Assembly: GCA_023665755.1 (NCBI GenBank) | Contig: JAMPDF010000002.1 | Span: forward strand, 396,982-460,981 | Origin: Prevotella sp. | GTDB taxonomy: Bacteria; Bacillota_I; Bacilli_A; ML615J-28; CAG-313 | DNA length: 64,000 bases | Direction: 5' to 3' | In this document: positions 4,998-52,789 of the stretch, piece by piece | Layout of the letters: the number at the start of each line of letters is the position of its first letter | Position numbering within the stretch: position 1 is the stretch's first letter | Made by a program: the position numbers and the translations under genes | Notes under the pieces: generated by a model | Seen by the model: the letters and a program-made list of their open reading frames with translations, nothing else | Database searches by the model: none | Told to the model about the DNA's origin: nothing

Positions 4998-4999
4998 CA

Positions 5000-6748
5000 A
5001 TGAAAAAGACAGTATTTACATTGATGTTAATGCTTGGCTTGTCTATTGGTTTAACTAATGTCACAAAAGCCAACGCCAAAAGTAAATTTGCAGGGTCTAC
5101 TCTTACGATTTATAATGTAGAAGATTATATTTCCAATGGTGAGGATGGATATGTGGATTTGATTGCGGAATTTGAAGACTTATATGATGTGAAAGTCAAT
5201 TACTATACATATGATACCAATGAAACTATGTATAATCAATTTACGCTTCAAAAAGAAGGTACCTATGATTTGATTTGTACATCAGATTATATGATCCAAA
5301 AGATGATCAAGCAAGAATTGGTCATTCCAATGGAAGATTATGCGGAAAAAATCCCTAATTATGAAAAATACGCATCTAAAGCTTTAAGAGAAAAACTCAA
5401 ACAAATGGAAGTACCTTATCAAGGCAGAACTGTGAATTTAGATGAGTTTGCGGTGGGATATATGTGGGGAACACTTGGCATTGTATATGACCCTACTTGT
5501 AGTGACACAATTTGCGAAGATGTAAAATCTTGGGATGTATTTTGGGATCCAAAATATAAGGATTTAATTTCTATTAAAAATTCGATTCGTGATGCTTTTG
5601 TTGCGGGATTGATGCATGCATATAGCCAAGATGAGACTTTTCAAAGTATCAAAAATGCGTACTTAGAAAACCCAACCGAGGCCAATCAATTACGTTATAA
5701 TCAATTGGTTCAAGATATTTTTGATTTCAAATTGGATGGTTCTTTAGAAAGCGATCGTGAAAACAAGGAAAAAATTGCTCGTGTAAAACAAGAACTTATC
5801 AGTATGAAGGAAAATATTTTTGGATTTGAAGTAGACTCTGGCAAAAATGATATTGTAACAGGAAGAATTAAACTGAATTTGGCTTATTCTGGTGATGCAG
5901 TATTTTCTATTGACACTGCAGAAGAAGAACAGGGTAAAAGACTAGAATATTATGTGCCAGAAGATGGAAGTAATATTTGGTATGATGCTTGGACCATTCC
6001 CAAGGGAGCTAAAAATATTGAACTTGCATATTTATTTTTAGACTATTTATCAGACCCAATCAATGCGGCTAGCAATATGGATTATATCGGCTATACGCCT
6101 TATATTGTTGGAGATGAATTGTTTACACTTGCTGGCGCATGGTATGGTGCAACCGACTATGCAGTAAATTGCGAGTATCTTGCCGAAAACGAATCTATGG
6201 TGATATATGAAAATCAGTTATATTGCTGTATCAAAGATAAACCAGCAGATGTTATCGTATATCCAGATAATGAGGAATACTTTGAACTTTGTGCATATGA
6301 TCCTGAAGGTGAATATGAAGAAGGAGAGATGGTATCATATGGTGGAAAATTATATAACTATATTGCAGAAGAAGCGGGTATTGTAGATGCCATTGAACAA
6401 ATAGAGGTATGGCAAGAAGTGGAAGCTTATGATTTATCTTATCTATTTAAAGGAACCCTGGGTGAAGAAAGAAGTGCTATCATTTATCCATTCCTTGGAT
6501 ATGAAAATAAACTACAAACACAGTATCCTAGTGAAAATTTAATTGCACGATGTGCCATTATGAATGACTTTGATTCCTATAATGAGCAAGTAGTAATTAT
6601 GTGGAGTCAAGTGAAAGCTTATACCAATATGATACCTGTGTATATTTTCTTAGTCATCACTCTAATTGTAGTGATTGGTTTATCTATTCTTTATGTTACA
6701 CGGAAACACATTACCATGAAATATAAGAAAAGAATGAGTCAAAAATAA
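5000..6748 (+). CDS. potD: Polyamine-binding protein PotD-like with a long C-terminal extension and a C-terminal TM anchor
   Basis: An N-terminal signal peptide is followed by a PotD/PotF-type periplasmic binding fold over the first 370 aa or so. A roughly 170-aa acidic extension follows, and the protein ends in hydrophobic helix IPVYIFLVITLIVVIGLSILYV plus a basic tail. Confidence 0.75.
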   Translation: MKKTVFTLMLMLGLSIGLTNVTKANAKSKFAGSTLTIYNVEDYISNGEDGYVDLIAEFEDLYDVKVNYYTYDTNETMYNQFTLQKEGTYDLICTSDYMIQKMIKQELVIPMEDYAEKIPNYEKYASKALREKLKQMEVPYQGRTVNLDEFAVGYMWGTLGIVYDPTCSDTICEDVKSWDVFWDPKYKDLISIKNSIRDAFVAGLMHAYSQDETFQSIKNAYLENPTEANQLRYNQLVQDIFDFKLDGSLESDRENKEKIARVKQELISMKENIFGFEVDSGKNDIVTGRIKLNLAYSGDAVFSIDTAEEEQGKRLEYYVPEDGSNIWYDAWTIPKGAKNIELAYLFLDYLSDPINAASNMDYIGYTPYIVGDELFTLAGAWYGATDYAVNCEYLAENESMVIYENQLYCCIKDKPADVIVYPDNEEYFELCAYDPEGEYEEGEMVSYGGKLYNYIAEEAGIVDAIEQIEVWQEVEAYDLSYLFKGTLGEERSAIIYPFLGYENKLQTQYPSENLIARCAIMNDFDSYNEQVVIMWSQVKAYTNMIPVYIFLVITLIVVIGLSILYVTRKHITMKYKKRMSQK

Positions 6749-6751
6749 AAA

Positions 6752-6780
6752 GCGAATATCTTCGGATATTCCTTTTTTTC
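6752..6780 (+). terminator. Rho-independent terminator after potD
   Basis: Hairpin GAATATC-TTCG-GATATTC is followed by CTTTTTTT. Confidence 0.7.
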
Positions 6781-6862
6781 TATTTCATTGAAATTTTAGA
6801 TAACTTTGAATTGAATTATTGGTAAAAATTCACAATGTGTAGTATAATATAAAGACGTATAG

Positions 6863-7618
6863 GTGATACTGATGAGAAAAGAAGAATTGTTAAAAAAAAT
6901 ACAATTGAAACCTCTTCCTAAGCATGTTGCACTCATCTTAGATGGCAATGGGAGATGGGCTAAAAAACGAGGACTCCCCCGTACCATGGGACACCATAAG
7001 GGAGCTAAGACATTACAAGAGATTGCTACAGTTGCGAATCAACTAGGGATTTCTTATTTGACATGCTTTGTATTTAGTACAGAAAATTGGTCAAGACCTC
7101 AAGAAGAAGTGGATTACATTATGAAGGAAGTTATTCGCTTATGTAACAATTGGCCAAAAACAAAGGAAAAAAATATCAAATTACAAATGATAGGCTCTAG
7201 AAAGCATGTTTTACCTACTGTTTTATCTGCTATTGATGAGGCAGTTGAACAAACGAAAAATTGTACAGGACTTACACTTTCTTTTGCCTTTAACTATGGA
7301 GGAAAAGAAGAAATTATTCAGGCCACGAAGTCAATTGCTAAACTTGTTCAAGAAGGAAAATTACCAATAGATGCCATCAATGAATCTATTTTTGAAGGGC
7401 ATCTTTATACCTACAATATGCCAATGGTGGACTTTATGGTTCGAACAAGTGGTGAAATGAGAATCAGTAACTTCTTATTGTGGCAAATTGCATATGCAGA
7501 GCTGTATTTTCCTAAAACATATTGGCCAGATTTTCATGAAAAAGAATTTTATATAGCAATAGAAGAATATCAAAACAGACATCGTCGTTTTGGTGGATTG
7601 GAGGATAAATCATGTTAA
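6863..7618 (+). CDS. uppS: Isoprenyl transferase / undecaprenyl-diphosphate synthase
   Basis: The conserved ILDGNGRWA motif and the UPP synthase C-terminal RFGG motif are present. Confidence 0.9.
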   Translation: MILMRKEELLKKIQLKPLPKHVALILDGNGRWAKKRGLPRTMGHHKGAKTLQEIATVANQLGISYLTCFVFSTENWSRPQEEVDYIMKEVIRLCNNWPKTKEKNIKLQMIGSRKHVLPTVLSAIDEAVEQTKNCTGLTLSFAFNYGGKEEIIQATKSIAKLVQEGKLPIDAINESIFEGHLYTYNMPMVDFMVRTSGEMRISNFLLWQIAYAELYFPKTYWPDFHEKEFYIAIEEYQNRHRRFGGLEDKSC

Positions 7619-8568
7619 AACGTGTTATTACTGGTGCGATTATGTTCTTAGTATTTGCCCCATTTATAGTTTTAGGGGGCTTGGCATCTACTATATTATT
7701 TGCTGTGTTAGCTTATATTGGTACATTTGAATTACTTCGTATGTATAGAAGCAAAAATGCAATACCCAAAGCATGTTTATATATTATTCCTATTTTTTCT
7801 AGTCTAATGGTTTTATCAGTTGGATGTAATGGAATAGATATGAGTGGCATAAAAAACTGTTTAGAAGATATTATGTATACATTGATTTTAAGTATTGTCA
7901 CATTGTTATTTATTGCTATCTTGGGTAAAGGGATTGCTATGAAAGACATTGTCTTCTTTATCTTTGCTCTGATTTATAGTGGATTTTCTTTTGCTATAAT
8001 GGCAGGACTAAGAAATAGTGATTTAATAGATACTATGTCATGTATGCTAAGTAGCATACGACCTTGTTTGGGATATTATGATTTATTTGGCGTGATTGAA
8101 ATTAACTGGGTAGGATTAGTCTTGTTTGGATATGTTCTGCTAACTACGATGTTTACTGATATTGGTGCATATCAATTCGGTGTTCTTTTTGGAAAAAAGA
8201 AATTATGCCCTAACATTAGCCCTAAAAAAACAGTGGAAGGAAGTATTGCTGGAACAATTTGTGGGGCTTTAATAGGAACCTCATTTATTGTTATAATAAA
8301 ACTATTTGTTTCTGGTTTTTCTTATACAAATTTTCCTCAATTTGATAATATCTATTTATTTTCTTTAGTGATGTTTTGTATCTCTCTTTTGCTCAGTGTA
8401 GCAGGCCAAATTGGTGATTTGGTTGCTTCTAAACTCAAAAGAGAGTATGAAATTAAAGATTTTGGACAAATTTTTCCGGGTCATGGTGGGGTGCTGGATC
8501 GTTTTGATTCTACGATTTTAACTACACTATTGTTTACCGCAATCTTATTTTTACTGGGGGCATTTTAA
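7612..8568 (+). CDS. cdsA: Phosphatidate cytidylyltransferase
   Basis: It is a polytopic membrane protein with the CdsA C-terminal signature (KRxxxxKDxGxxxPGHGGxxDRxDS). Confidence 0.85.
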   Translation: MLKRVITGAIMFLVFAPFIVLGGLASTILFAVLAYIGTFELLRMYRSKNAIPKACLYIIPIFSSLMVLSVGCNGIDMSGIKNCLEDIMYTLILSIVTLLFIAILGKGIAMKDIVFFIFALIYSGFSFAIMAGLRNSDLIDTMSCMLSSIRPCLGYYDLFGVIEINWVGLVLFGYVLLTTMFTDIGAYQFGVLFGKKKLCPNISPKKTVEGSIAGTICGALIGTSFIVIIKLFVSGFSYTNFPQFDNIYLFSLVMFCISLLLSVAGQIGDLVASKLKREYEIKDFGQIFPGHGGVLDRFDSTILTTLLFTAILFLLGAF

Positions 8569-9725
8569 TGAAAAATATCTTATTACTAGGAGCAACAGGA
8601 TCAATTGGTACACAAGTATTAGATTTGATTCGAGAAAATGAAGAATATGGTTTATCGGCATTTAGTTTTGGAAATAATGTAAATAGGGCTGAAGAAATTA
8701 TTGCGGAATTCCATCCAGAGGTCGTATGTGGTATTCATGGCTATGATATTGCAAAATTGCAAGAAAAATATCCTGATATCAAATATGTGATTGGAGACAT
8801 TGGGCTACAACAAATTGCCTCTGCACAAATTGAAAATCCCATGTTTATTAATGCATTAGTGGGAGCAGTGGGATTAATGCCAACTGTTACAGCAATTGAA
8901 AATAAAATGGATGTATATCTTGCCAACAAAGAGTCCTTAGTTATGGGGGGCGAAATTATTATGCAAAAGGCAAAAGAAAAAAATGTACGGATTATTCCTA
9001 TTGATAGTGAACATAGTGCCATTTATCAACTATTAGAAGGTAAAAACAAAGAGGATATTCGAAAATTGTGGATTACTGCAAGTGGGGGTGCTTTCCGAGA
9101 TTTGCCACGAGAAGATCTTGAACATGTCACTCTAGAACAAGCTTTACAACATCCCAATTGGAAAATGGGGAAGAAGATTACAATTGATAGTGCAACAATG
9201 ATGAATAAAGGTTTTGAATTGATTGAGGCACATTATTTATTTGATATCGATATTGATGCAATTGTGCCAATCTTACATCAAGAAAGCATTATTCATTCTA
9301 TGGTTGAATTTCGCGATGGCAGTATCTTTGCGCAAATGGCTTCTTCGGATATGCATTTACCTATTTTATATGCATTAGAAGGGCCAAGACATTTGCCTAG
9401 TGAAGCAATTACTCCACTTGATTTGACAAAGGTTGGTGCACTTCATTTTGAAGAAGTATCATTGCAGAGGTATCCGCTAGTTGCCCTTGCTATTTCGGCT
9501 TTTAAAACGGGAAAATTACAATGTACCATTTTAAATGCTGCAAATGAAGCGGCTGTACAATTGTTTTTAGAAGGTAAAATTGCTTTTTTAGATATTGAAA
9601 CAATTATTGCTCAAGCCTTAGAAAATCCACAGTATCAAGGATTTAATCAAGGCGATATTAGCATACCGAAAATGATGACATTACATGAATTGGTTTATCA
9701 ATCTATTTATCATCAATTTCATTAG
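8568..9725 (+). CDS. dxr: 1-deoxy-D-xylulose 5-phosphate reductoisomerase
   Basis: It starts MKNILLLGATGSIGTQ with an NADPH-binding N-terminus and has Dxr catalytic motifs. The uppS-cdsA-dxr-rseP synteny is classic. Confidence 0.9.
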   Translation: MKNILLLGATGSIGTQVLDLIRENEEYGLSAFSFGNNVNRAEEIIAEFHPEVVCGIHGYDIAKLQEKYPDIKYVIGDIGLQQIASAQIENPMFINALVGAVGLMPTVTAIENKMDVYLANKESLVMGGEIIMQKAKEKNVRIIPIDSEHSAIYQLLEGKNKEDIRKLWITASGGAFRDLPREDLEHVTLEQALQHPNWKMGKKITIDSATMMNKGFELIEAHYLFDIDIDAIVPILHQESIIHSMVEFRDGSIFAQMASSDMHLPILYALEGPRHLPSEAITPLDLTKVGALHFEEVSLQRYPLVALAISAFKTGKLQCTILNAANEAAVQLFLEGKIAFLDIETIIAQALENPQYQGFNQGDISIPKMMTLHELVYQSIYHQFH

Positions 9726-9740
9726 AAAGGAGTAAAACAA

Positions 9741-11348
9741 ATGAATTTTTTATGGATATTAATTGGTCTTGTGATATTCGCCATTGTGATGACCATTTTA
9801 GTTGCGATTCATGAGGGGGGACATTTCATTGCCGCAAAAAAAGCGGGCATCTTATGTCATGAGTTTTCGATTGGTATGGGACCAATCATTTATCAAAAGA
9901 AAAAAGGAGAAACCGTTTATTCTATTCGTGCTTTGCCAATTGGTGGTTTCGTATCAATGGCAGGTGAGGAAGTAGAAGATAATGTACTCAAAGGCGTTCA
10001 AAAAGTGAAGTTACAATTGGATGATACTGGTAGGGTTACCAAAATCATCATCAATTTAGATAATCCTAAATATAAAGATTTACCAGTATACCAATTAGTT
10101 TCTTATGATCTCATTGGTACCAAAGCGGCTTTACCTGATGAATTGTTTATTGAAGTCAAAGAAGAAAATGAGAGTACTTCTAATCGATACATTGTTAATC
10201 GAGATTGCTTAGTGAATTATCAAAAGAAAGAAGAAATTCAAATAGCACCATATGATAGAAATTTTGTCAACAAACCATTATTGAATCGTTTTCTAAGTGT
10301 GTTTGCTGGTCCATTTATGAATTTTGTATTGGCCATATTTATCTTTTTTTTAATTGGGTTATTTGCAGGATATGCAGATACAGAGCATACCATTTTGGGT
10401 GGTGTTACCGTAGTGGAAGGTTCAAATAACACTTTAGAAGTAGGCGATGAACTAGAATCCATTAATGGTATATCGTTAGAGGATTGGGCGAGTATTTCTA
10501 CTGTATTAGATAATATTGCTCAAGGTGGAGAAAAATTTACAGGCAGTATTACAGTTGTTGCCAAAGGGAAAGAACCTATTGTGATTCATCCAAGTGTATT
10601 TATTTATTCCATTGAATTAGCCTTTAAGGTGGATGGAACGAATGAAGCCATAATTGGTAGCTATTCAAGTAACAATGATAAAACCAAGGCATATAAGGCG
10701 GGATTAAGAGAAGGGGATAAAATTATTGCCATTAACGGAGATACAACCCTATCTACCAAATCGGCACTATTAGCTTATTTTACTTCTAAAGAATTAGAAA
10801 AGGGTCAAAAATTAGAAATTACATATGAACGTGATGGTTTGACGAAAACAACTGAAATTGAAAATTACAGTAAAAAGGTACTTGATGCACAAGGCATTGT
10901 GGCAACCAAAGTACAGCTAGGTATTACTTGTCAAAATAAATTTCATTTGGGTAAATTATTGTATATGCCATTTGTAGAAACAGCTGAATCTTGTACTATG
11001 ATTTTTAAAACATTAGGGGCTCTTTTTACAGATAAATCAATTGGCGTAGACGATTTAAGTGGACCAGTAGGCATTTTTAATTTATTGAAAGAGGCCACTA
11101 AACAAGGTGTTTTAACATTATTAAGTTGGATTGCAATTTTAAGCGTCAATTTGGGATTTATCAATTTGTTACCACTACCTGCTTTAGATGGTGGACGTCT
11201 TGCTTTTATGATATACGAAGCAATTACTAAGAAAAAACCAAGTCCAAAGGTAGAAAATACGATTCATACAATTGGGTTCTTACTACTTATGGCATTGATG
11301 TTGTTTATTTCTTTTAATGATATTTTACGTTGTATAGGAATCAAGTGA
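9741..11348 (+). CDS. rseP: RIP metalloprotease RseP/RasP (site-2 protease) with PDZ domain(s)
   Basis: The HEGGHF zinc motif sits in the first TM helix and the LDGG motif near the C-terminus. It ends in TGA. At 535 aa it is longer than typical. Confidence 0.85.
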   Translation: MNFLWILIGLVIFAIVMTILVAIHEGGHFIAAKKAGILCHEFSIGMGPIIYQKKKGETVYSIRALPIGGFVSMAGEEVEDNVLKGVQKVKLQLDDTGRVTKIIINLDNPKYKDLPVYQLVSYDLIGTKAALPDELFIEVKEENESTSNRYIVNRDCLVNYQKKEEIQIAPYDRNFVNKPLLNRFLSVFAGPFMNFVLAIFIFFLIGLFAGYADTEHTILGGVTVVEGSNNTLEVGDELESINGISLEDWASISTVLDNIAQGGEKFTGSITVVAKGKEPIVIHPSVFIYSIELAFKVDGTNEAIIGSYSSNNDKTKAYKAGLREGDKIIAINGDTTLSTKSALLAYFTSKELEKGQKLEITYERDGLTKTTEIENYSKKVLDAQGIVATKVQLGITCQNKFHLGKLLYMPFVETAESCTMIFKTLGALFTDKSIGVDDLSGPVGIFNLLKEATKQGVLTLLSWIAILSVNLGFINLLPLPALDGGRLAFMIYEAITKKKPSPKVENTIHTIGFLLLMALMLFISFNDILRCIGIK

Positions 11349-43815: not shown

Positions 43816-43844
43816 TTGCCAAAAAAAAGCAAATTATGTATAAT
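43816..43844 (+). promoter_or_regulatory. Sigma-A promoter (TTGCCA-17-TATAAT) upstream of rex-adhE-hydrogenase operon
   Basis: The -35 is at 43816-43821, the spacer is 17 nt and the -10 is at 43839-43844, preceded by TG. Confidence 0.5.
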
Positions 43845-44005
43845 AATAGGGTAATAGCTTGTTGGTATATTCAATATCATTTTAATGCTAGAAAAAACAA
43901 AAATGAATAGCTATACAAGAATCATCTAGGATGATTTTTCCTTTATGATTTTTAATCGATATACTAGTATCGATATAGTTATATTTGATTCAAGGTGGTG
44001 AGAAC

Positions 44006-44629
44006 TTGCTACAGAATGCTGTTGCTAAAACAGTCCTTTATCGTATACCTATGTATTTGGAATATTTAATGGATATTCATGAAAATGAACCATCCATATC
44101 ACATATTTCTTCAAAGAAGATTTCGACTGATTTAGAATTAGGAGAAGTACAAGTAAGAAAAGATTTATCTATGATATGCGATAAGGGAAAACCCAAAATA
44201 GGATATAATTTATTAGAACTTATCGCGCATCTTCAAGACTATTTGGGGTGCAACTTTACCAAATATGCAATAGTAATAGGGGTTGGGAAATTAGGTAGCG
44301 CCATTTATCATTACGATGGTTTCAAGAAGTATGGTATTGAAATTGTTGCGGGATACGACAAAAAAGGTAACAGGATACCTGGTATTCAATTTTTTTCAAA
44401 AGAAAATGTGATGAAAATATTTCAAACGCATAAGATTGAAATTGGGATTATTTGTGTACCCAAAGAAGAAGCCCAAGAGGTTGCCGATGTACTAGTTGCA
44501 CTCGGTATAAAAGCAATTTGGAATTTTGCACCTATCCGGTTAAAGGTTCCAAAACATATATTTGTTCAAAATGAAAATCTTGCTTATTCATTAAGCATTA
44601 TCTCATCAATTATTAATCATTCACAATAG
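44006..44629 (+). CDS. rex: Redox-sensing transcriptional repressor Rex
   Basis: It has the N-terminal wHTH (VLYRIPMYLEYL) and an NADH-binding Rossmann fold (AIVGVGKLGSAIYHY). The likely TTG start at 44006 lies 5 nt after RBS AAGGTGGTGA. The ORF track starts at an upstream TTG at 43985. Confidence 0.75.
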   Translation: MLQNAVAKTVLYRIPMYLEYLMDIHENEPSISHISSKKISTDLELGEVQVRKDLSMICDKGKPKIGYNLLELIAHLQDYLGCNFTKYAIVIGVGKLGSAIYHYDGFKKYGIEIVAGYDKKGNRIPGIQFFSKENVMKIFQTHKIEIGIICVPKEEAQEVADVLVALGIKAIWNFAPIRLKVPKHIFVQNENLAYSLSIISSIINHSQ

Positions 44630-44638
44630 GAGGTAGAC

Positions 44639-47242
44639 ATGAATAAAATAGTTGACAGTTTAGAAACGTTAGAAGAAAAAATTAAAGAAGTGCGAAAGGC
44701 ACAAGAGATTTTAGCTACTTATACACAAGAACAAGTAGATAAGATTTTTAAGGCGGCGGCTATTGCGGCAAATTCCAATCGAATTATGTTAGCAAAAATG
44801 GCAGTAGAAGAAACAGGCATGGGAGTGGTTGAAGATAAGGTAATCAAAAACCATTATGCCAGTGAATATATTTATAATGCTTATCGTGATACACAAACTT
44901 GTGGTGTCATTGAAGAAGATAGTGCTTTTGGCATCAAAAAGGTTGCAGAACCAATTGGCGTTATTGCTGCAGTTATTCCGACGACAAATCCAACATCTAC
45001 AGCGATATTCAAAACATTAATTGCTCTAAAAACGCGAAATGGAATTATCATTAGTCCACATCCAAGGGCGAAAAAATCAACGATTGCTGCAGCAAAAGTG
45101 GTACTAGATGCTGCTGTAAAGGCGGGTGCTCCCAAACATATTATTGGTTGGATTGATGTTCCGAGTCTAGAAATGACGAATACTGTGATGAAAGAAGCCG
45201 ATATTATTTTAGCAACAGGTGGTCCTGGTATGGTGAAAGCTGCCTACTCTAGCGGCAAACCTGCTTTAGGAGTAGGTTCAGGAAATACACCAGCAATCAT
45301 TGACGAAAGTGCAAATGTGGTTCTTGCAGTCAACTCCATTATTCATTCCAAAACATTTGATAATGGAATGATTTGCGCATCTGAACAATCAGTGATTGTA
45401 TTAAAAAAGATATATGAACAAGTAAAAGATGAGTTTTTGAAAAGAGGCTGTTATTTCTTAAATCCAGAAGAATTGGAGAAAGTAAGAAAGACAATTTTAA
45501 TTAATGGATCTTTGAATGCGAAGATTGTAGGACAATCAGCTTATAAAATTGCTCAGTTATCGGGTATTGAGGTGCCTGCCTATACAAAAATTTTAATTGG
45601 TGAAGTAGAAAAATATGATTTGAGTGAAGAGTTTGCGCATGAAAAATTATCTCCAGTACTTGCTATGTATAAGGCTACTTCATTTGATGACGCTTTAGTT
45701 AAAGCAGAATCTTTAATTGCAGATGGTGGATTGGGACACACTTCCTCGATTTTTATTGATCAAATTCATGAAAAAGCCAAATTAGAAAAATTTTATAATC
45801 GAATGAAGACCTGTAGAATTATTGTCAATACACCTGCTTCTCAAGGAGGTATTGGGGATTTATATAACTTTAAACTGGCTCCATCTCTTACATTAGGTTG
45901 TGGATCATGGGGAGGAAACAGTGTTTCTGAAAATGTTGGTGTCAAACATTTATTAAATATCAAAACAGTAGCGGAAAGAAGGGAAAATATGTTGTGGTTT
46001 AGAACTCCTCAAAAAGTATATATCAAAAAAGGATGTTTACCTGTTGCCCTAAATGAATTAAAGGATGTATACAATAAAAAGAAGGTATTTATTGTAACAG
46101 ATGGTTTCTTGTATCAAAATGGATATACAAAGCCTATTACCAATCAATTGGATGCTATGGGAATAATGCATACTACTTTCTATAATGTTGCTGCTGATCC
46201 TTCTTTAGGCAGTGCAAAAGAAGGGGCAAGGCAAATGGCTTCTTTTGGACCAGATGCAATTATTGCTATAGGTGGAGGTTCCGCAATGGATGCTGCTAAA
46301 ATCATGTGGGTATTATATGAACACCCAGAAGTAGATTTTGCTGATATGGCTATGCGTTTTTCCGATATTCGCAAAAGAATTTATCAATTTCCAAAGATGG
46401 GGGAAAAAGCAATGTTTATTGCTATTCCAACTACAGCGGGAACTGGTTCTGAAGTTACGCCATTTGCTGTTATTACTGATGAGGCTACGGGTATTAAATA
46501 TCCACTAGCAGATTATGAATTGATGCCTAATATGGCAATTGTAGATGCGGATATGATGATGAATGCACCGAAAGGTCTTACGAGTGCATCCGGAATAGAT
46601 GCAGTTACACATGCATTAGAAGCATATGCATCAATGCTCGCAACAGAGTATACAGATGGTCTTGCAAAAGAGGCATTAAAGGTAATTTTTGAATATTTGC
46701 CTCGGGCATATGAAGATGGACCATCAGATGCAGTAGCTAGAGAAAAAATGGCTAATGCAGCAACTATGGCAGGTATGGCTTTTGCTAATGCTTTCCTAGG
46801 AGTTTGTCACTCTATGGCACATAAATTAGGTGCATTCCACCATTTACCACATGGTGTAGCTAATGCTTTGATGATTGATGAAGTGATTCATTTCAATAGT
46901 GCAGAAATTCCAACTAAGATGGGAACCTTCCCACAATATGATCATCCACATACGGCTAGTCGATATGCTGAAATTGCAGACTATTTGGGATTAGGAGGAA
47001 AGACAACTGAAGAAAAAGTAGAACTATTGATTGAAAAAATAGATCAGTTAAAAGAAAAAATTGGTATCAAACAGTCTATTCAAGAATATGGTGTGGATGA
47101 AAAAGATTTCTTAGAAAGATTAGATGAAATGACTGAACAAGCATTTGATGATCAATGTACAGGTGCTAATCCTCGTTATCCTCTAATGAGTGAAATTAAA
47201 CAAATGTATTTAAATGCATATTATGGAAAGGAGACAAAGTAA
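44639..47242 (+). CDS. adhE: Bifunctional aldehyde/alcohol dehydrogenase AdhE
   Basis: It is 867 aa with an N-terminal ALDH domain and a C-terminal Fe-ADH domain (GGGSAMDAAK and the iron-ADH histidines). Confidence 0.95.
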   Translation: MNKIVDSLETLEEKIKEVRKAQEILATYTQEQVDKIFKAAAIAANSNRIMLAKMAVEETGMGVVEDKVIKNHYASEYIYNAYRDTQTCGVIEEDSAFGIKKVAEPIGVIAAVIPTTNPTSTAIFKTLIALKTRNGIIISPHPRAKKSTIAAAKVVLDAAVKAGAPKHIIGWIDVPSLEMTNTVMKEADIILATGGPGMVKAAYSSGKPALGVGSGNTPAIIDESANVVLAVNSIIHSKTFDNGMICASEQSVIVLKKIYEQVKDEFLKRGCYFLNPEELEKVRKTILINGSLNAKIVGQSAYKIAQLSGIEVPAYTKILIGEVEKYDLSEEFAHEKLSPVLAMYKATSFDDALVKAESLIADGGLGHTSSIFIDQIHEKAKLEKFYNRMKTCRIIVNTPASQGGIGDLYNFKLAPSLTLGCGSWGGNSVSENVGVKHLLNIKTVAERRENMLWFRTPQKVYIKKGCLPVALNELKDVYNKKKVFIVTDGFLYQNGYTKPITNQLDAMGIMHTTFYNVAADPSLGSAKEGARQMASFGPDAIIAIGGGSAMDAAKIMWVLYEHPEVDFADMAMRFSDIRKRIYQFPKMGEKAMFIAIPTTAGTGSEVTPFAVITDEATGIKYPLADYELMPNMAIVDADMMMNAPKGLTSASGIDAVTHALEAYASMLATEYTDGLAKEALKVIFEYLPRAYEDGPSDAVAREKMANAATMAGMAFANAFLGVCHSMAHKLGAFHHLPHGVANALMIDEVIHFNSAEIPTKMGTFPQYDHPHTASRYAEIADYLGLGGKTTEEKVELLIEKIDQLKEKIGIKQSIQEYGVDEKDFLERLDEMTEQAFDDQCTGANPRYPLMSEIKQMYLNAYYGKETK

Positions 47243-47243
47243 A

Positions 47244-47993
47244 ATGGATTTAGAACGTGTTATTGCCGTAAGAACATCAAAGACAATTTATCGGACAGGT
47301 GAAAAAGTTGTTAAGGTATTTGATGAAGACTATTCAAAAGTAGATGTCTTAAATGAAGCGTTAAATCAAGCGATTGTAGAAGGATTAGGACTACATATTC
47401 CTAAGATTTATTCTGTAGAATCTGTAGAGGGAAAATGGGCCATTGTCTCTGAATATATAAAAGGAAAAACAATTTCTGATTTGATGCAAATGCATCCTGA
47501 GAAAAAAAATGAATATTTAGAAAAATTTGTGGATTTACAACTATCCATGCATCAAGTCAAGTGTTCTAATTTAAAGAAACTCAAAGACAAAATGAATACA
47601 AAAATTAGCCAAACGGACTTAGATGCTACTACTCGTTATGAATTACATACGAGATTAGAGGGGATGCCTAAACATAATAAGTTGTGTCATGGTGATTTTA
47701 ATCCATCAAATGTAATTATTCGTGAGGATGGAACACCATTTATTATTGACTGGAGTCATGCTACGCAAGGCAACGCATCTGCTGATGTTGCTAGAACATA
47801 TTTGTTATTTTGGTTAAATCAAGAGGGTGAAACAGCAAATCAATATTTGGATTTATATTGCCAAAAGAGTGGTGTAGCTAAGAAATATATTCAGTCTTGG
47901 TTACCTATTGTTGCTGCGTCACAATCTGTAAAAGGTCATCAAAATGAACGTGATCTTTTGTTGAGTTGGGTTAATGTTGTTGACTACGAATAG
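47244..47993 (+). CDS. Protein-kinase-fold phosphotransferase (APH/choline-kinase family)
   Basis: It carries the Brenner motif HGDFNPSNVII and IDWSHA (DxxxxN...D). The start ATG at 47244 follows RBS AAGGAG, 1 nt after the adhE stop. Confidence 0.6.
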   Translation: MDLERVIAVRTSKTIYRTGEKVVKVFDEDYSKVDVLNEALNQAIVEGLGLHIPKIYSVESVEGKWAIVSEYIKGKTISDLMQMHPEKKNEYLEKFVDLQLSMHQVKCSNLKKLKDKMNTKISQTDLDATTRYELHTRLEGMPKHNKLCHGDFNPSNVIIREDGTPFIIDWSHATQGNASADVARTYLLFWLNQEGETANQYLDLYCQKSGVAKKYIQSWLPIVAASQSVKGHQNERDLLLSWVNVVDYE

Positions 47994-48002
47994 GAGGAAA
48001 AT

Positions 48003-48242
48003 ATGAAAAAAGTAGTAGTTTGTATAGGAAGTTCATGTCATTTAAAAGGCTCTAGACAAGTTGTAGAAAGATTGCAAGAATTGATTGCAGAATATGATTT
48101 AAAAGAAGAAGTAGAACTCCAAGGTACTTTTTGTATGGGCAACTGCCAAAAAGGGGTTTGCGTGAAAGTAGATGAAACATTATTTTCCGTATCCCCAGAA
48201 ACAGTAGATGCATTCTTTCAAAAAGAGGTAATGGGAAAATAG
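48003..48242 (+). CDS. Thioredoxin-like [2Fe-2S] ferredoxin (NuoE/HydC-fold), copy 1
   Basis: It is 79 aa with four Cys in a CxxxxC...CxxxC pattern (C7, C12, C44, C48). Confidence 0.6.
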   Translation: MKKVVVCIGSSCHLKGSRQVVERLQELIAEYDLKEEVELQGTFCMGNCQKGVCVKVDETLFSVSPETVDAFFQKEVMGK

Positions 48243-48253
48243 GTACATAGCAA

Positions 48254-48502
48254 ATGACAATTCAAATTTGTATCGGTAGCTCATGCCATCTAAAAGGTTC
48301 ACAACAAATAATTGAATTATTTGAAAAAAGTATTCAGGAAAATCAATTAGAAGAAAAGGTAAAACTTGTCGGTTCTTTCTGTTTGGGAAAGTGTAGCAAT
48401 TCAGGAGTTAATGTTTGCATTGATGATAAGGAAATGATTAGTGTAACTCCAGAAAATTTTCACGCGTTTTTCAATGATAAAGTATTAAAATATTTAAAAT
48501 AG
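48254..48502 (+). CDS. Thioredoxin-like [2Fe-2S] ferredoxin (NuoE/HydC-fold), copy 2 (tandem paralog)
   Basis: It is 82 aa with the same Cys spacing as copy 1 and clear paralogy (ICIGSSCHLKGS in both). Confidence 0.6.
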   Translation: MTIQICIGSSCHLKGSQQIIELFEKSIQENQLEEKVKLVGSFCLGKCSNSGVNVCIDDKEMISVTPENFHAFFNDKVLKYLK

Positions 48503-48511
48503 GTGAGAAAT

Positions 48512-50188
48512 ATGTCCGAATTTTTAAAATTAAAGAAATCAAATTGTAAGAATTGTTATAAATGTATTCGACATTGTCCAGTAAAATCAATTAAATTCTC
48601 TGGTGATCAAGCGCATATTGTTGGCAACGAATGTATTTTATGTGGTCAATGTTTTGTCGTTTGTCCACAAAATGCCAAAGAAATTCAGAATGATTTGGAA
48701 AAAGTGAAAGTAATGCTTGCTGCAAAAGAACAAGTCATTGTAAGTTTAGCTCCTTCATTTATTGCCAACTACGATGGAATTGGTCTTGAGCAAATGGCAC
48801 AAGCTCTACGTCAATTGGGCTTTTTTGCGGTAGAGGAAACTGCCATTGGTGCAACCATTGTAAAAAAGCAATATGAAGCCATTTTGGAGTCAAAAAGACA
48901 AAATATCTTGATTACATCTTGCTGTCATTCTGTGAATTTGCTCATTCAAAAGTATTTTCCGAGTACACTTCGATATCTTGCTGACGTAAAATCTCCTATG
49001 CAAATGCATGCAATAGATATCAAGAAAAGAATGCCTAATGCCAAAGTTGTATTTATTGGACCATGTCTCGCTAAAAAGGATGAGGCAGACCATTATACAG
49101 GAATCGTTGATGCTGTCTTGACATACGAAGAATTGACAATGTGGTTAAAAGAAAGTAATATTGTTCTAGAAAAAGGACTAGAAGTAAATGAAAAGTCAAA
49201 GGCAAGATTATTCCCAATAACCGGAGGGATTTTAAAAACAATGAAACCTGATATTGCAGGCTATAAATATATTGCGATTGATGGGGTAGAAAATTGTATA
49301 GCTGCTTTAAAAGATATAGAAAATGGCATGTTAGATAATTGTGTAATTGAAATGTCAGCTTGCGTAGGTAGTTGTATAGGTGGGCCAGTTATGGAGAAAT
49401 ATCATCGTTCCCCTATTCGTGATTATTGTTCAGTCGTAAATTATGCAGGTAATCAAGATTTCGATGTAGAAGCATATGGTGATGAGGAACTAACCAAGCA
49501 TTTTGAATATATTGCAAGAAAGGCAGAAGAACCCTCTGAAGATGCTATTCGTTCTATTCTAAGACAGATGGGCAAGATGCGCCCATCAGATGAATTAAAT
49601 TGTGGTTCATGTGGCTATAATACTTGTCGTGAAAAGGCGATAGCGATTATTCAAGGTAAAGCTTCTATTTCTATGTGTTTGCCTTTCCTAAAAGAAAGAG
49701 CAGAGAAATTTTATACCAATATTATTGATAATACACCAGATGGCATTTTAGTATTAAATGAAGATCTAGAAGTTCAACAAATCAATGATGCGGCACGTAA
49801 GATTATGAATATTAAATATGCAACGGACGTATTAGGAGATCAAGTCATTCGTATTCTTGATCCATATCCATTCTTGCAAGTCAAATTAAACAATAAAAAT
49901 GTTTATAATGAACGTATTTATTTGGCTGAGTATAATCGATATGTCGAAAGAACTATTGTCTATGATAAAAATTATAAAATTATCATTTGTTTTATGAGAG
50001 ATGTTACACTTGAGGTTACCGCAAAAGAAAAGAAAGATGAAATCTCTTCAAGAACGGTAGAAATCGCTGATAAAGTGGTGGATAAACAAATGCGTATTGT
50101 CCAAGAAATTGCTTCCCTTTTAGGAGAAACTGCAGCTGAAACTAAAATTGCTTTAACGAAATTAAAGGAGTCAATGAAGGATGAATAA
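48512..50188 (+). CDS. hydS: Sensory-type [FeFe] hydrogenase (HydS/HfsB-like, group C). Domains are 2x[4Fe-4S] ferredoxin, H-cluster, Cx2Cx4Cx16C cluster and a C-terminal PAS domain.
   Basis: Ferredoxin motifs CKNCYKCIRHCP and CILCGQCFVVCP are present. The H-cluster motifs are variant: TSCCHSV (L1), FIGPCLAKKDE (L2), EMSACVGSCIGGP (L3). CGSCGYNTC-x16-C and a PAS-like C-terminus follow. The start ATG at 48512 follows AGGTGAG. Confidence 0.8.
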   Translation: MSEFLKLKKSNCKNCYKCIRHCPVKSIKFSGDQAHIVGNECILCGQCFVVCPQNAKEIQNDLEKVKVMLAAKEQVIVSLAPSFIANYDGIGLEQMAQALRQLGFFAVEETAIGATIVKKQYEAILESKRQNILITSCCHSVNLLIQKYFPSTLRYLADVKSPMQMHAIDIKKRMPNAKVVFIGPCLAKKDEADHYTGIVDAVLTYEELTMWLKESNIVLEKGLEVNEKSKARLFPITGGILKTMKPDIAGYKYIAIDGVENCIAALKDIENGMLDNCVIEMSACVGSCIGGPVMEKYHRSPIRDYCSVVNYAGNQDFDVEAYGDEELTKHFEYIARKAEEPSEDAIRSILRQMGKMRPSDELNCGSCGYNTCREKAIAIIQGKASISMCLPFLKERAEKFYTNIIDNTPDGILVLNEDLEVQQINDAARKIMNIKYATDVLGDQVIRILDPYPFLQVKLNNKNVYNERIYLAEYNRYVERTIVYDKNYKIIICFMRDVTLEVTAKEKKDEISSRTVEIADKVVDKQMRIVQEIASLLGETAAETKIALTKLKESMKDE

Positions 50189-51353
50189 TCTTTGTACAGA
50201 TATAGGCTATCGTAGTTTACTCAAACATCATGAGCAACTTTGTGGTGATCATATAGATATTATTGACCAGGAGGATGGAACAAAAATTATTGTACTTGCT
50301 GATGGATTAGGAAGCGGGGTAAAAGCATGTATTTTATCAACTTTAACTTCTAAAATTATTTCAACAATGATGGCAGAAGGAATCTCTATTGAGGAATGTG
50401 TCGCAACGATTGCTGCAACACTACCTGTTTGTTCTGTTCGTAAGGTGGCTTATTCTACCTTTACAATTTTGAAAATTTCACCTAATAGCGAAGCTGAAGT
50501 TATAGAATATGATAATCCTGGGATTATTTTAATACGTGATGGAGAAAATTATGAGTTAAACAAAACTGAATTGAACATTGGAGGTAAAAAAATTTACAAA
50601 TCCAAAGTCCAATTGTATGAAAATGACGTATTTGTAATGATGAGTGATGGATGTATTTACGCTGGAGTCGGAAAAACACTTAATTTTGGTTGGAAAAGAG
50701 AAGATATCATTGAAATGGTAAAGATTTTACCATCAGCTGGTTATACAGCAAAAACAATGACAACAATTTTACTAGATGAGTGTAATAAATTATATGGCTA
50801 TGAACCAGGTGATGATACGACTGCTTGTGTAGTTCGAATTAGAAAAAGAGAACCAATGAATCTTTTATTTGGTCCACCAAGTAATCCGGATGATTGTAAT
50901 CGAATGATGTCATTGTTTTTTTCTAAAGGTGGAAAACACATTGTATGTGGTGGAACAACTTCATCTATAGCTGCTAAATACTTAGGTAAATCAATCACCC
51001 CATCACTTAATTATTCGGATCCTAAAATCCCACCAACTGCTGAAATTGAAGGAGTAGATTTGGTAACAGAAGGTGTAATTACCATTAATCGTGTATTAGA
51101 ATATGCAAAGGATTATTTAGAAGATAATCAATCTTATGTCAATTGGTGTTATAAAAAAGATGGAGCATCTTTAATCTCACGTCTTTTATTTGAAGAAGCT
51201 ACCGATATTAATTTTTATGTAGGAAGAGCAATGAATCCTGCACATCAAAATCCCAATCTACCTATCAATTTCAACATTAAAATGCAATTGGTTCAAGAAC
51301 TATCAGAGTGCTTGAAAAAGATGGGAAAAAATATAAAAGTAAGTTATTTTTAG
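50181..51353 (+). CDS. PP2C (PPM/SpoIIE-type) serine phosphatase with an uncharacterised roughly 170-aa C-terminal domain
   Basis: It carries the PPM motifs GDHIDI, ADGLGSGVKA, MMSDGCIYAGVG and GDDTTACVV. Its start overlaps the hydS stop. Confidence 0.75.
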   Translation: MNNLCTDIGYRSLLKHHEQLCGDHIDIIDQEDGTKIIVLADGLGSGVKACILSTLTSKIISTMMAEGISIEECVATIAATLPVCSVRKVAYSTFTILKISPNSEAEVIEYDNPGIILIRDGENYELNKTELNIGGKKIYKSKVQLYENDVFVMMSDGCIYAGVGKTLNFGWKREDIIEMVKILPSAGYTAKTMTTILLDECNKLYGYEPGDDTTACVVRIRKREPMNLLFGPPSNPDDCNRMMSLFFSKGGKHIVCGGTTSSIAAKYLGKSITPSLNYSDPKIPPTAEIEGVDLVTEGVITINRVLEYAKDYLEDNQSYVNWCYKKDGASLISRLLFEEATDINFYVGRAMNPAHQNPNLPINFNIKMQLVQELSECLKKMGKNIKVSYF

Positions 51354-51364
51354 GTGAAAAAAAT

Positions 51365-52789
51365 ATGAAAAAATTTGATACACAAGTTCAATATTTAAAA
51401 TATAAAGTATTAAGAGAAGTAGCAAGAAAGGCTTGGGATGATACGTTATATGAAAAAATATTGGATATACCCAAAATTATTATTCCAGGACCTACCCCGA
51501 CTACAAGATGTTGTATTTATAAAGAAAGGGCAATTGTTGAAGAAAGAATTAAGATTGCTATGGGTGGAGATAAATCAAATCCCAATGTCATAGAAGTCAT
51601 TGATTTGGCTTGTGATGAATGTCCTGTTGCAGGATATGAAGTAACAGATGTATGTAGAGGTTGTCTTGCGCATCGCTGTCAAGATGCGTGTAAAAAAGAT
51701 GCCATTTATTTTGATCACAACCAAAAAGCTCACATTGATAAATCGAAATGTGTAGAATGTGGAAAGTGTTCTACAGTATGCCCATATGGTGCCATTGTCA
51801 ATTTTAAAAGACCATGTGAAAAATCATGCAAAGTAAAAGCGATTTCAATGGGACCAAATAAGGCAGCCAAAATCGATAATGATAAATGCATTTCTTGTGG
51901 TTCATGTGTTTATCAATGCCCATTCGGTGCTATTATGGATAAATCTTATATTATTAATGTCATTGATATTTTGAAAAAAAGTCAGCATAATCAAAAATAT
52001 AAAACTTATGCGGTAGTAGCTCCATCCATATCTAGTCAATTTGTGCATGCTAAATTAGGACAAGTGATTTCAGGTATCAAGGAATTAGGATTCTTTACAG
52101 TAGTAGAAGCAGCTCTTGGTGCTGATATGGTGGCATACAAGGAAACACAAGAATTAATTGAAAAAGGCTTTTTAACTAGTTCGTGTTGTCCTGCTTTTGT
52201 AATGTATATCAAAAAGAATTTTCCCAAATTGGTAGAGCATATTTCGCACAATTTATCTCCTGCCGCAGAAATTGCCAAATACATTAAGGAAACTGATCCA
52301 ACCGCAAAAGTGATTTTTATTGGTCCATGTACTGCGAAAAAGGCTGAGTTTCAGCAAGAAATGCAGAAACAATATGTTGATTCTGTATTGACATTTGAAG
52401 AATTGCAAGCCCTTTTTGATAGTAAAGATTTAGATATTTACTCATTATCAGAAGATGTTTTAGATAATGCATCTTATTATGGCAGAATCTTTGCTAGGAG
52501 TGGGGGTTTAACGGATGCTGTAAAACAGGCATTAATTGAATTGGGACAAACGGATTTTGAGGTAAAGCCAGTCGTATGTAATGGAATTGAAGAATGCCGA
52601 ATGGCCTTATTAAAAGTTGGTAAAATTGATATTGGTAACTTTATAGAAGGAATGGCTTGTGTAGGTGGATGCATTGCTGGAGCAGGTTGTTTAACTCATG
52701 GTGAAAAGAATAAAGCAGAAGTAGATAAGTATGGCATGGAAGCATATGAAAAAACCATTCAAGATGCTATCAAAGTGCTTAAAAAGTAA
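51365..52789 (+). CDS. hydA: [FeFe] hydrogenase catalytic subunit (group B-like, extra N-terminal Cys cluster plus 2x[4Fe-4S])
   Basis: The canonical H-cluster motifs SSCCPAFV (L1), FIGPCTAKKAE (L2) and EGMACVGGCIAGAG (L3) are present. Ferredoxin motifs are CVECGKCSTVCPYGAI and CISCGSCVYQCPFGAI. The start is set at MKKFDTQ after AGGTGA. The ORF track extends upstream into the PP2C gene. Confidence 0.8.
   Translation: MKKFDTQVQYLKYKVLREVARKAWDDTLYEKILDIPKIIIPGPTPTTRCCIYKERAIVEERIKIAMGGDKSNPNVIEVIDLACDECPVAGYEVTDVCRGCLAHRCQDACKKDAIYFDHNQKAHIDKSKCVECGKCSTVCPYGAIVNFKRPCEKSCKVKAISMGPNKAAKIDNDKCISCGSCVYQCPFGAIMDKSYIINVIDILKKSQHNQKYKTYAVVAPSISSQFVHAKLGQVISGIKELGFFTVVEAALGADMVAYKETQELIEKGFLTSSCCPAFVMYIKKNFPKLVEHISHNLSPAAEIAKYIKETDPTAKVIFIGPCTAKKAEFQQEMQKQYVDSVLTFEELQALFDSKDLDIYSLSEDVLDNASYYGRIFARSGGLTDAVKQALIELGQTDFEVKPVVCNGIEECRMALLKVGKIDIGNFIEGMACVGGCIAGAGCLTHGEKNKAEVDKYGMEAYEKTIQDAIKVLKK

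Follow-up and report, generated by a model that had tools for sequence, protein, structure and literature searches.

Group C [FeFe] hydrogenases are putative H2 sensors, and the literature follows the relay of their signal as far as a PAS domain and a neighbouring phosphatase. In HydDB, the group C3 enzymes are classed as "phosphatase-linked" (PMC5037454), and HfsC, encoded in the hfsABCD operon of Thermoanaerobacterium, is a serine phosphatase homologue (PMC11837493, PMC5707799). An eight-gene cluster of Ruminococcus albus that includes genes for AdhE, a sensory hydrogenase and a phosphatase is regulated 111-fold by H2-consuming partners (PMC6776011). Genetic and transcriptomic evidence for H2-dependent regulation of fermentation genes comes from Thermoanaerobacterium and R. 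albus only (PMC5707799, PMC6776011). In biofuel thermophiles the hfs-type system determines how fermentation is divided among ethanol, acetate, lactate and H2, and deletion of hfsB there doubles the ethanol yield; the system operates also in rumen and gut Clostridia. Here we describe a related locus in a 64,000-nucleotide stretch of contig JAMPDF010000002.1 (assembly GCA_023665755.1, positions 396,982 to 460,981; hereafter the window), in which the gene for a sensory hydrogenase, HydS, is followed by an HfsC-like phosphatase gene (50181..51353, plus strand, 390 aa, ATG start). The C-terminal part of this phosphatase (residues 221-390, the C-domain) is, according to structure prediction, an autonomous and previously undescribed alpha/beta signalling domain.

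The gene order of the window resembles that of hfsABCD and of the R. albus cluster in combining a small [2Fe-2S] protein, a PAS-bearing sensory hydrogenase, a PP2C phosphatase and a ferredoxin-linked hydrogenase (PMC5707799, PMC11837493, PMC6776011, PMC5037454), and the R. albus cluster, like the window, also carries Rex, AdhE and a kinase (PMC6776011). HfsC is likened to the window phosphatase by description and gene order, not by sequence. The downstream hydrogenases differ in class, that of the window belonging to group B1 and R. albus HydA2 to group A1 (PMC6776011). An initial annotation of the locus, made from the sequence alone, had taken the phosphatase to be the likely partner of HydS. 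Its gene is indeed translationally coupled to that of the PAS-bearing sensory hydrogenase, and the partnership is not new, because group C3, hfsABCD and the R. albus hydS cluster had all been described. While the phosphatase class and the operon are thus known, the C-domain is new in its orphan status, its fold, its conservation and its stand-alone forms; a C-terminal domain of the phosphatase is not mentioned in the HfsC, R. albus and HydDB literature cited here.

A predicted alpha/beta domain without family assignment

The C-domain (FGPPSNPDD...KVSYF; 50841..51350, plus strand) is matched by no Pfam or NCBIfam model. A Pfam scan of 47 family members at E<=10 returned nothing recurrent over the domain, and phmmer and profile hmmsearch comparisons with PDB sequences gave noise only, all of which bears out the earlier remark that these roughly 170 residues fit no family. 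A search with residues 221-390 against 1.84 billion cluster representatives recovered 1075 clusters at 50% identity (E<=1e-3), 649 of them at E<=1e-10, and the matched domain lay almost always at about residues 221-390 of proteins of 385-400 aa. Because these clusters are joined by at least 8000 matches to the full-length phosphatase (E<=1e-3), the open reading frame at 50181..51353 is not a chance one. The family is unannotated, its members appearing as "hypothetical" or "phosphatase, partial" in source databases, and it deserves a family definition.

The initial annotation had proposed structure prediction for this region. AlphaFold2 (AF2), run on the C-domain alone with a 47-sequence alignment, gives a confident and compact alpha/beta domain (predicted local distance difference test, pLDDT, 92.7; predicted template modelling score, pTM, 0.88). 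Its elements are predicted to run b1-a1-b2-a2-b3, then through an insertion of about 50 residues, and on to a3-b4-a4-b5. In the model of the full-length protein the C-domain follows the last strand of the PPM phosphatase domain after a turn of two residues, with a pLDDT of 96 at the junction, and the two domains are predicted to be joined without a flexible linker.

The domain is under strong constraint. Across 80 genome loci, which derive mostly from metagenome-assembled genomes (MAGs) of Clostridia and whose phosphatases are 69-74% identical to that of the window, C-domain identity ranges from 74.7 to 84.1% (mean 78.4%) and PPM identity from 63.2 to 70.9% (mean 66.7%), the former exceeding the latter in 80/80 loci; the mean for AdhE is similar to that of the C-domain, at 79.9%. 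Judged by sequence identity, no other regulatory element of the operon is as well conserved as the C-domain.

Residue conservation was counted over 108-145 representatives, the number varying by position (92 for G231). Three motifs stand out. The loop G257-G258-T259-T260 (50949..50960, plus strand) links strand beta2 to the N-terminus of helix alpha2 and is a candidate phosphate-binding or phospho-acceptor site; each of its glycines is kept in 107/108 representatives, position 259 is T or S in 103/109 (the exceptions being A, D, V and Q, with Asp in one representative counted), and position 260 is T or S in 104/109. The motif D293-L-V-T296-E297-G298-x-x-T301 (51057..51083, plus strand), at a strand end and helix start, shows D293 in 117/129, T or S at 296 in 130/133, E297 in 132/135, G298 in 134/135 and T301 in 131/136. 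In N352-P-A-H355 (51234..51245, plus strand), which follows strand beta4, N352 is found in 137/140 and H355 in 118/140. Among single positions, G231 (92/92) and G348 (139/141) are near-invariant, and D327 is Asp in 123 and Asn in 17 of 145. Most of the near-invariant residues sit directly after predicted beta-strands or at helix starts, and the set GG-T259-T260, D293, T296, E297 and T301 offers a mutable handle on the pathway.

The scattered cysteines remarked on in the initial annotation are present, and they proved uninformative: only C256 is mostly conserved (91 Cys, 11 Ser and 5 Ala of 108, or 84% Cys), the remaining C-domain cysteines being variable. A Cys-ligated metal or Fe-S site was considered and rejected, as the domain lacks a pattern of three to four conserved cysteines.

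Comparison of the C-domain with known folds

Foldseek comparison of the C-domain model with 350,542 PDB chains gave no match at E<1e-3. A confident match to a common housekeeping fold unrelated to signalling would have refuted the docking idea, according to the initial annotation; Foldseek found no such fold that would speak against a signalling role. The best neighbour by E value was UbiX (2ejb; E 4.5e-3, template modelling (TM) score 0.31). The methylglyoxal synthases (MGS) 1vmd and 1wo8 had E values of 0.016-0.021 and probabilities of 0.95-0.97 (0.97 for 1vmd, with TM 0.41/0.44, and 0.95 for 1wo8), with TM scores of 0.37-0.48, all below 0.5, and a further weak neighbour was the Rossmann-like N-domain of acetyl-CoA synthase.

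The phosphate-binding element of MGS-like, SIS and flavodoxin-type domains consists of a strand, a G-x-[ST]-[ST] loop and a helix. The C-domain model shares with MGS-like, SIS and UbiX/flavoprotein domains a strand, a Gly-rich loop with Ser/Thr and a helix at the equivalent position, and we take its GG-T-T loop to be comparable to the ATGTTG loop of MgsA and the STGGTA loop of PurH. It differs from all of these in the insertion of about 50 residues, which bears IPP and DLVTEG motifs, and it has no recognisable counterparts of the MGS catalytic residues, nor is there significant sequence or profile similarity. The MGS-like model PF02142 matched none of the 47 family members at E<=10. With hhalign, an MGS profile (8 sequences, seeded with E. 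coli mgsA, the homologues found being almost all from Enterobacteriaceae) aligned over 28 columns only, pairing the loop with MgsA TGTT (probability 5.5, P 0.007), and the global alignment was meaningless. A SIS phosphoheptose isomerase reached E 0.2 against the C-domain profile in hmmsearch, again through the loop only (GNGSS against GG). Membership of the MGS-like family was rejected, given the missing HMM (hidden Markov model) match and the loop-only alignment, and it stays a weak structural lead; because the similarity is limited to one loop, we file the C-domain under no known family. As far as sequence comparison goes, the likeness to MGS-like folds extends no further than a loop that probably binds phosphate or another anion.

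These features suggest two readings in which the domain handles a small molecule. In the first, the pocket outlined by GG-T-T, D-TEG-T, DG and NPAH would bind a phosphate-bearing metabolite or cofactor, for which triose or hexose phosphate, acetyl phosphate, a nucleotide or a flavin are candidates. The C-domain would then be a ligand-binding sensor or allosteric domain, setting PPM activity in cis and, where it stands alone, kinase activity in trans, and merging information on metabolic state with the H2 signal that HydS provides. We place this reading clearly below one half, as a close rival of the phospho-receiver discussed below. The near-invariant Gly loops and polar residues after beta-strands and at helix starts make up a classical Rossmann-like ligand site, the weak neighbours 1vmd, 1wo8 and UbiX each use the equivalent strand-loop-helix to bind a phosphorylated ligand, and the alignments to MgsA and SIS proteins single out the same loop. 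The linker-free junction to a PPM domain that has no N-terminal input domain is likewise typical of an allosteric domain. On the other hand, no ligand can be named, every fold and sequence similarity lies below significance, and HydS is already a plausible input for the PPM.

In the second, the domain would itself be an enzyme, for example a small-molecule phosphatase, lyase or isomerase of MGS-like or SIS-like type. It would make or destroy a signalling metabolite, and the aminoglycoside phosphotransferase (APH)-type kinase encoded in the cluster would carry out the phosphorylation of that metabolite. The invariant residues are enzyme-like (Asp, Glu, His, Asn, Thr), the kinase resembles small-molecule kinases, and the weak structural resemblance to MGS points the same way. 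Against this, several stand-alone members lack the candidate catalytic residues His355 and Asp327, family membership is not detectable, and the genomic context is regulatory and not that of a metabolic pathway; we hold an enzymatic C-domain to be the least probable of the readings weighed here.

Pairing of HydS with the fused phosphatase

hydS lies immediately 5' of the phosphatase gene, with overlapping starts, in 80/80 genome loci, and immediately 5' in 67/80 loci of a second sample, drawn from metagenomes. The remaining 13 metagenome loci had no HydS match; nine of them show PPM, C-domain and group-B hydrogenase, three show C-domain and group-B hydrogenase, and one shows PPM and C-domain. 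In the three without PPM the match lies within about 30 nt of a contig end, which explains at least these three. The initial annotation had named absence of the gene beside hydS homologues as a weakening observation, and the adjacency seen in both samples speaks the other way. The PPM and C-domain are fused in 77/80 metagenome loci, the other three being those cut at the contig end, and the fused form is far commoner than the stand-alone C-domain. A group-B hydrogenase gene follows the phosphatase gene in 68/80 metagenome loci. A kinase gene is nearby in most loci.

Stand-alone C-domain genes in redox cassettes

The C-domain also occurs as a separate protein of 159-171 aa, with a short leader of its own, in cassettes without HydS and without PPM. 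Such a gene was counted as real only where the upstream gene was seen to encode something else, and many short matches were discarded as artefacts, namely contig-edge fragments, calls from an internal Met (P0172, P0175) and frameshifted long-read contigs (L097-L100). The stand-alone proteins have no Pfam domain and are unnamed or called "hypothetical protein" in source databases.

At least five sequence-distinct groups of cassettes have the order kinase, ferredoxin, C-domain. In L094 (50-kb contig; 4060-8983) and in L095/L096 (448- and 967-kb gut contigs; 5008-9940), genes for a LysR-type regulator, an APH kinase, a [2Fe-2S] ferredoxin, the C-domain, NfnA and NfnB follow one another. L087 (462-3468) has the same order from the kinase onwards, L089-91 have an iron-dependent alcohol dehydrogenase (Fe-ADH), Rex, kinase, ferredoxin and C-domain, and L093 has kinase, ferredoxin and C-domain. 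The kinases of these cassettes are 34-47% and the ferredoxins 49-61% identical to their orthologues in the window, and the ferredoxin genes lie directly 5' of the C-domain genes, with a 4-nt overlap in L094. The cassettes with nfnAB tie this regulatory toolkit to NfnAB, which the Thermoanaerobacterium literature links functionally to HfsD.

Two further arrangements were found. In L081-83 (L081:2789-5680) the C-domain gene stands between a LysR gene and that of a group-B1 hydrogenase (in L081, TIGR04105 567 bits, 63% identical to that of the window). In L088 (1-1244; a single 1.85-kb contig) it begins 8 nt 3' of a gene for a PHP-family phosphoesterase (Pfam PHP 1.9e-10). The LysR regulators of L018 (about 3797-4657; a locus with hydS), L081 (2789-3754) and L094 (4060-5028) are 46-57% identical to one another and appear, from this similarity, to be a dedicated subfamily able to replace Rex at the head of the cluster.

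The stand-alone homologues keep GG-(T)-T and V-T-E-G-x-x-T strictly (six verified), and NPAH and DG are degenerate in them. Taken over all loci, the C-domain is a near-constant element of a redox cassette made up of an APH-fold kinase, a thioredoxin-like [2Fe-2S] ferredoxin and the C-domain, usually headed by Rex or a LysR-type regulator and usually adjoining genes for AdhE, a group-B hydrogenase, NfnAB or lactate dehydrogenase (LDH). Because separate copies sit beside a kinase and an Fe-S protein, the C-domain is probably no mere docking handle but a core part of redox-balance regulation in gut fermenting bacteria.

These cassettes bear directly on the proposal in the initial annotation that the C-domain may be a docking or target-recognition module. 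In its narrow form, the C-domain would bind the PAS domain or the C-terminal helix of HydS and receive the H2 signal. The translational coupling of hydS and the phosphatase gene fits this, as does the fused PPM-C-domain gene that comes right after HydS in each locus with a HydS match. However, stand-alone C-domains are conserved in cassettes without any HydS, and regulators of SpoIIE/RsbU-class PPMs usually act on the switch helices of the catalytic domain. Since identity and motifs are kept where HydS and PPM are both absent, the C-domain does not serve primarily to dock onto HydS, and its main partners lie elsewhere. We regard docking onto HydS as very improbable; that part of the proposal fell, and target recognition in a broader sense is left standing.

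In such a broader sense the C-domain could be an adaptor that binds a redox enzyme (group-B hydrogenase, NfnAB) or a transcription factor (Rex, LysR-type) and brings the PPM to its substrate. The gene directly 3' of the C-domain mostly encodes a redox enzyme, either a group-B hydrogenase (the window, the metagenome loci counted above, L081) or NfnA (L087, L094-96), a member of the dedicated LysR subfamily is encoded beside the domain in L018, L081 and L094, and deletions of hfsC and hfsD share a phenotype in T. saccharolyticum (PMC5707799). The partners, however, differ across cassettes, hydrogenase being exchanged for Nfn and Rex for LysR, and for that reason a single docking surface with so many invariant polar and Gly residues would be unexpected. 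An adaptor function is in our view quite improbable.

The PPM catalytic domain

Residues 1-220 of the phosphatase (50181..50840, plus strand) form a PPM catalytic domain of SpoIIE/RsbU/RsbX type. The Pfam SpoIIE model PF07228 matches residues 32-220 with 61.3 bits against a cut-off of 25. The initial annotation had listed a complete set of PPM metal-binding motifs in this part, and all four are there: CGDHIDI (residues 21-27), ADGLGSG (40-46), SDG (155-157) and DDTT (211-214). In an alignment of 39 diverse homologues, 38-64% identical to the window phosphatase, D23, D41, G42, D156, G157, D211 and D212 occupy invariant columns, and the motifs align with the metal-binding motifs of SpoIIE (phmmer, 5mqh, 5e-05). 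The AF2 model of the full-length protein (pLDDT 89.8, pTM 0.88) finds SpoIIE 5mqh (E 3e-14; TM score on the target, TMt, 0.69), 3pu9 (TMt 0.75) and 3zt9 (TMt 0.77) in Foldseek, with further matches to 3w40, SiaA 6k4e, RsbX, RssB and the RsbU part of Rv1364c (fragment 3ke6). By HMM, motifs and predicted fold, the 390-aa protein is a SpoIIE-subfamily PPM phosphatase, and phosphatase activity is predicted for it. No domain lies N-terminal of the PPM domain, just as the initial annotation had described it.

Identical proteins carry the NCBI names serine/threonine phosphatase or SpoIIE-family phosphatase. One family member, P0560 (MBM7870251.1, Clostridium pascui), bears the name "sulfur transfer complex TusBCD TusB component (DsrH family)", which is spurious: comparison of the C-domain with E. 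coli TusB and TusD gave nothing, and we treat the name as a misannotation because the sole similarity is a PPM segment, L..GD.L...SDGV..A.

A possible receiver-like phospho-switch

The usual substrate of a SpoIIE/RsbU-type PPM is a small phosphoprotein of one domain, with the gene for its kinase close by. The window PPM shares catalytic subfamily and fold with SpoIIE, RsbU, RsbP, RsbX and SiaA, and a kinase is encoded in its cluster as in theirs; the logic proposed below, with a kinase and a phosphatase opposing each other on a small alpha/beta protein, is shared as well. It differs from the partner-switching PPMs in having no N-terminal regulatory domain and no STAS substrate among the scanned proteins: Pfam found no STAS match in the kinase, the two ferredoxins, HydS, the phosphatase or the group-B hydrogenase, and for the C-domain none appeared among the top 50 Foldseek matches either. 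The kinases differ as well, that of the window having the APH/ELK fold and those of partner switches being GHKL proteins of anti-sigma type. The candidate substrate in the window, unlike those of SpoIIE/RsbU systems, is a domain of 170 aa, not of STAS type, that makes up the C-terminal part of the phosphatase itself.

On these grounds (the type of PPM, the stand-alone cassettes with a kinase, the missing STAS match and a kinase of APH fold rather than GHKL), we tentatively favour, at a probability that we place clearly below one half, a reading of the C-domain as a receiver-like phospho-signalling element on which kinase and PPM converge. Since transcription factor and enzymes (Rex or LysR; AdhE, group-B hydrogenase, NfnAB or LDH) vary across the kinase-containing cassettes, the ferredoxin and the C-domain are the sole shared candidates for a partner of the kinase. 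The domain has the highest conservation among the regulatory parts, and its near-invariant GG-[TS]-[TS] sits at a helix N-terminus; a hydroxyl at a helix N-cap is the acceptor geometry of SpoIIAA-type substrates.

The steps would be as follows. The APH-fold kinase would phosphorylate the C-domain, most plausibly at T259 or T260, where helix alpha2 begins, and the SpoIIE-type PPM would remove the phosphate. Where the PPM is fused N-terminal to the C-domain and coupled to HydS, as in the window and in most gut Clostridia, dephosphorylation would come under H2 control. The ferredoxin would supply a redox input, and a regulator, neighbouring enzymes or both would read the phospho-state of the C-domain. 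What the analysis establishes is where the domain begins and ends, its predicted fold, its orphan status, its conservation pattern, its gene neighbourhoods and its stand-alone forms. We infer the phosphorylation itself, the acceptor residue, the assignment of the APH kinase as a protein kinase, the gating of the PPM by HydS and the downstream readout.

Rv1364c of M. tuberculosis is a precedent for a phosphatase fused to its own switch module. As in the window, its PPM is fused to partner-switch parts of its own, 3ke6 comprising the RsbU and RsbW domains; the full protein also carries an RsbV (STAS) substrate domain. The fused parts of Rv1364c include a GHKL kinase, whereas the window has an orphan Rossmann-like domain in the fused position and a kinase of APH fold that is encoded separately. 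The PHP phosphoesterase of L088 appears, on one short contig, to place a second and unrelated phosphatase family beside the C-domain.

Several observations weigh against a phospho-receiver. APH-fold kinases mostly phosphorylate small molecules, and the weak NCBIfam matches of the window kinase include thiamine kinase and APH besides Bud32. About 17/80 of the genome loci with the fused gene have no upstream kinase match, and in L081 no kinase, ferredoxin, HydS or PPM is encoded nearby. The near-invariant D293, T296, E297, T301, D327, N352 and H355 look more like a ligand or catalytic pocket than an acceptor site, and T259 and T260 are not strictly invariant, each being a hydroxyl residue in about 95% of sequences. 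With the two-residue turn and linker-free junction of the model, dephosphorylation in cis would require the right geometry. A literature search on the C-domain and its phosphosites found nothing. A ligand-binding sensor fits better the large invariant pocket set, the linker-free junction and the small-molecule bias of APH-fold kinases, and the L081 protein, without a kinase, keeps the GGTT and TEG motifs. The sensor, in turn, is hard to square with the degenerate NPAH and DG of the stand-alone forms, and alone it leaves the C-domain's travelling with the kinase unexplained. In our judgement it is more probable than not that one or the other of these two readings, phospho-receiver or sensor, applies.

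The phospho-receiver can be extended to a wider scheme, in which the C-domain would be a new, non-STAS receiver at the centre of a widespread "redox partner-switch" with a ferredoxin-tuned kinase, a HydS-gated PPM and an output through Rex or LysR or through enzymes (AdhE, group-B hydrogenase, NfnAB). This scheme as a whole is speculative, and we think it unlikely; if true, it would supply the output pathway still missing for the sensory [FeFe] hydrogenases that Clostridia of gut and rumen possess.

The operon around the phosphatase gene

The phosphatase gene is part of a co-directional cluster headed by rex (43985-44629) and adhE (44639-47242; together 43985..47242, plus strand), which are conserved upstream in many relatives. 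A scan by consensus only placed a promoter-like site at 43816-43844 and found no plus-strand terminator-like site from there to 54000, the end of the scanned region. Searches for the Rex box TTGTTAAN4TTAACAA with up to 3 mismatches returned 15 sites against 19.8 expected, none of them near the operon.

The kinase gene is listed as an open reading frame from 47214, which would overlap adhE by 29 nt. The N-termini of its homologues (MNLDRIIAVRN...) indicate that translation probably starts at M11, at 47244, one base past the adhE stop, giving a gene at 47244..47993 (plus strand; Pfam APH 2e-20). Two tandem genes for HfsA-like thioredoxin-like [2Fe-2S] ferredoxins follow (48003-48242 and 48254-48502, plus strand; Pfam PF01257), whose products are 45% identical to each other.

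The product of hydS (48503..50188, plus strand) is a group-C [FeFe] hydrogenase of sensory type, made up of Fer4, H-domain, FeS and PAS regions (Pfam Fe_hyd_lg_C 8e-48, FeS PF04060 4e-11, PAS 2.8e-05). Catalytic [FeFe] hydrogenases carry a TSCCP motif; residues ~146-152 of HydS read ITSCCHS, and TSSCCPAF is found in the group-B enzyme encoded nearby. hydS and the phosphatase gene share 8 nt (...GG ATG AAT AA...), so the overlap of start and stop codons that the initial annotation had reported is real. The phosphatase ATG at 50181 falls within the final hydS codons, and an AAGGAG Shine-Dalgarno sequence lies 11-16 nt 5' of it. At the other end, the TAG stop of the phosphatase gene overlaps an AGGTGA ribosome-binding site, and the next start lies 12 nt on, at 51365.

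That start belongs to the gene for an HfsD-like, monomeric group-B1 [FeFe] hydrogenase (51365..52789, plus strand; TIGR04105 561.9 bits, cut-off 450). A GTG at 51308, inside the phosphatase gene, is the listed start, but the TIGR04105 match and the homologues, which begin MKKFDTQ, place it at ATG 51365. Among all loci fetched, 67 have a match that covers more than 85% of the enzyme, and in these the identity is 63-77%.

Variation among relatives

The closest genome relatives of the locus (L001-L080) are nearly all from Clostridia (Acutalibacteraceae, Oscillospiraceae, Christensenellales), with one bin of Anaeroplasmataceae, and NCBI labels a MAG that encodes an identical phosphatase as Anaeroplasma bactoclasticum. 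Horizontal transfer or a binning problem are possible explanations for Clostridia-like relatives under an Anaeroplasma label.

In L002, L012, L016 and L029, a divergent gene for L-lactate dehydrogenase (minus strand) directly precedes the ferredoxin and hydS genes, about 1.3-1.7 kb 5' of hydS, and no upstream kinase match is detectable; L018 has its LysR-type regulator in the place of the LDH gene. In L098/L099 (1676-3613), HydS is 645 aa long, and a thioredoxin-like [2Fe-2S] domain comes first among its Pfam matches (weakly), suggesting that sensory hydrogenase and small ferredoxin can occur as one fused protein. In L021, a bona fide methylglyoxal synthase gene (3462-3890), whose product shares 50% identity with E. 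coli MgsA, separates minD from the APH kinase gene of the hydrogenase cluster, a placement that is probably an insertion-site coincidence.

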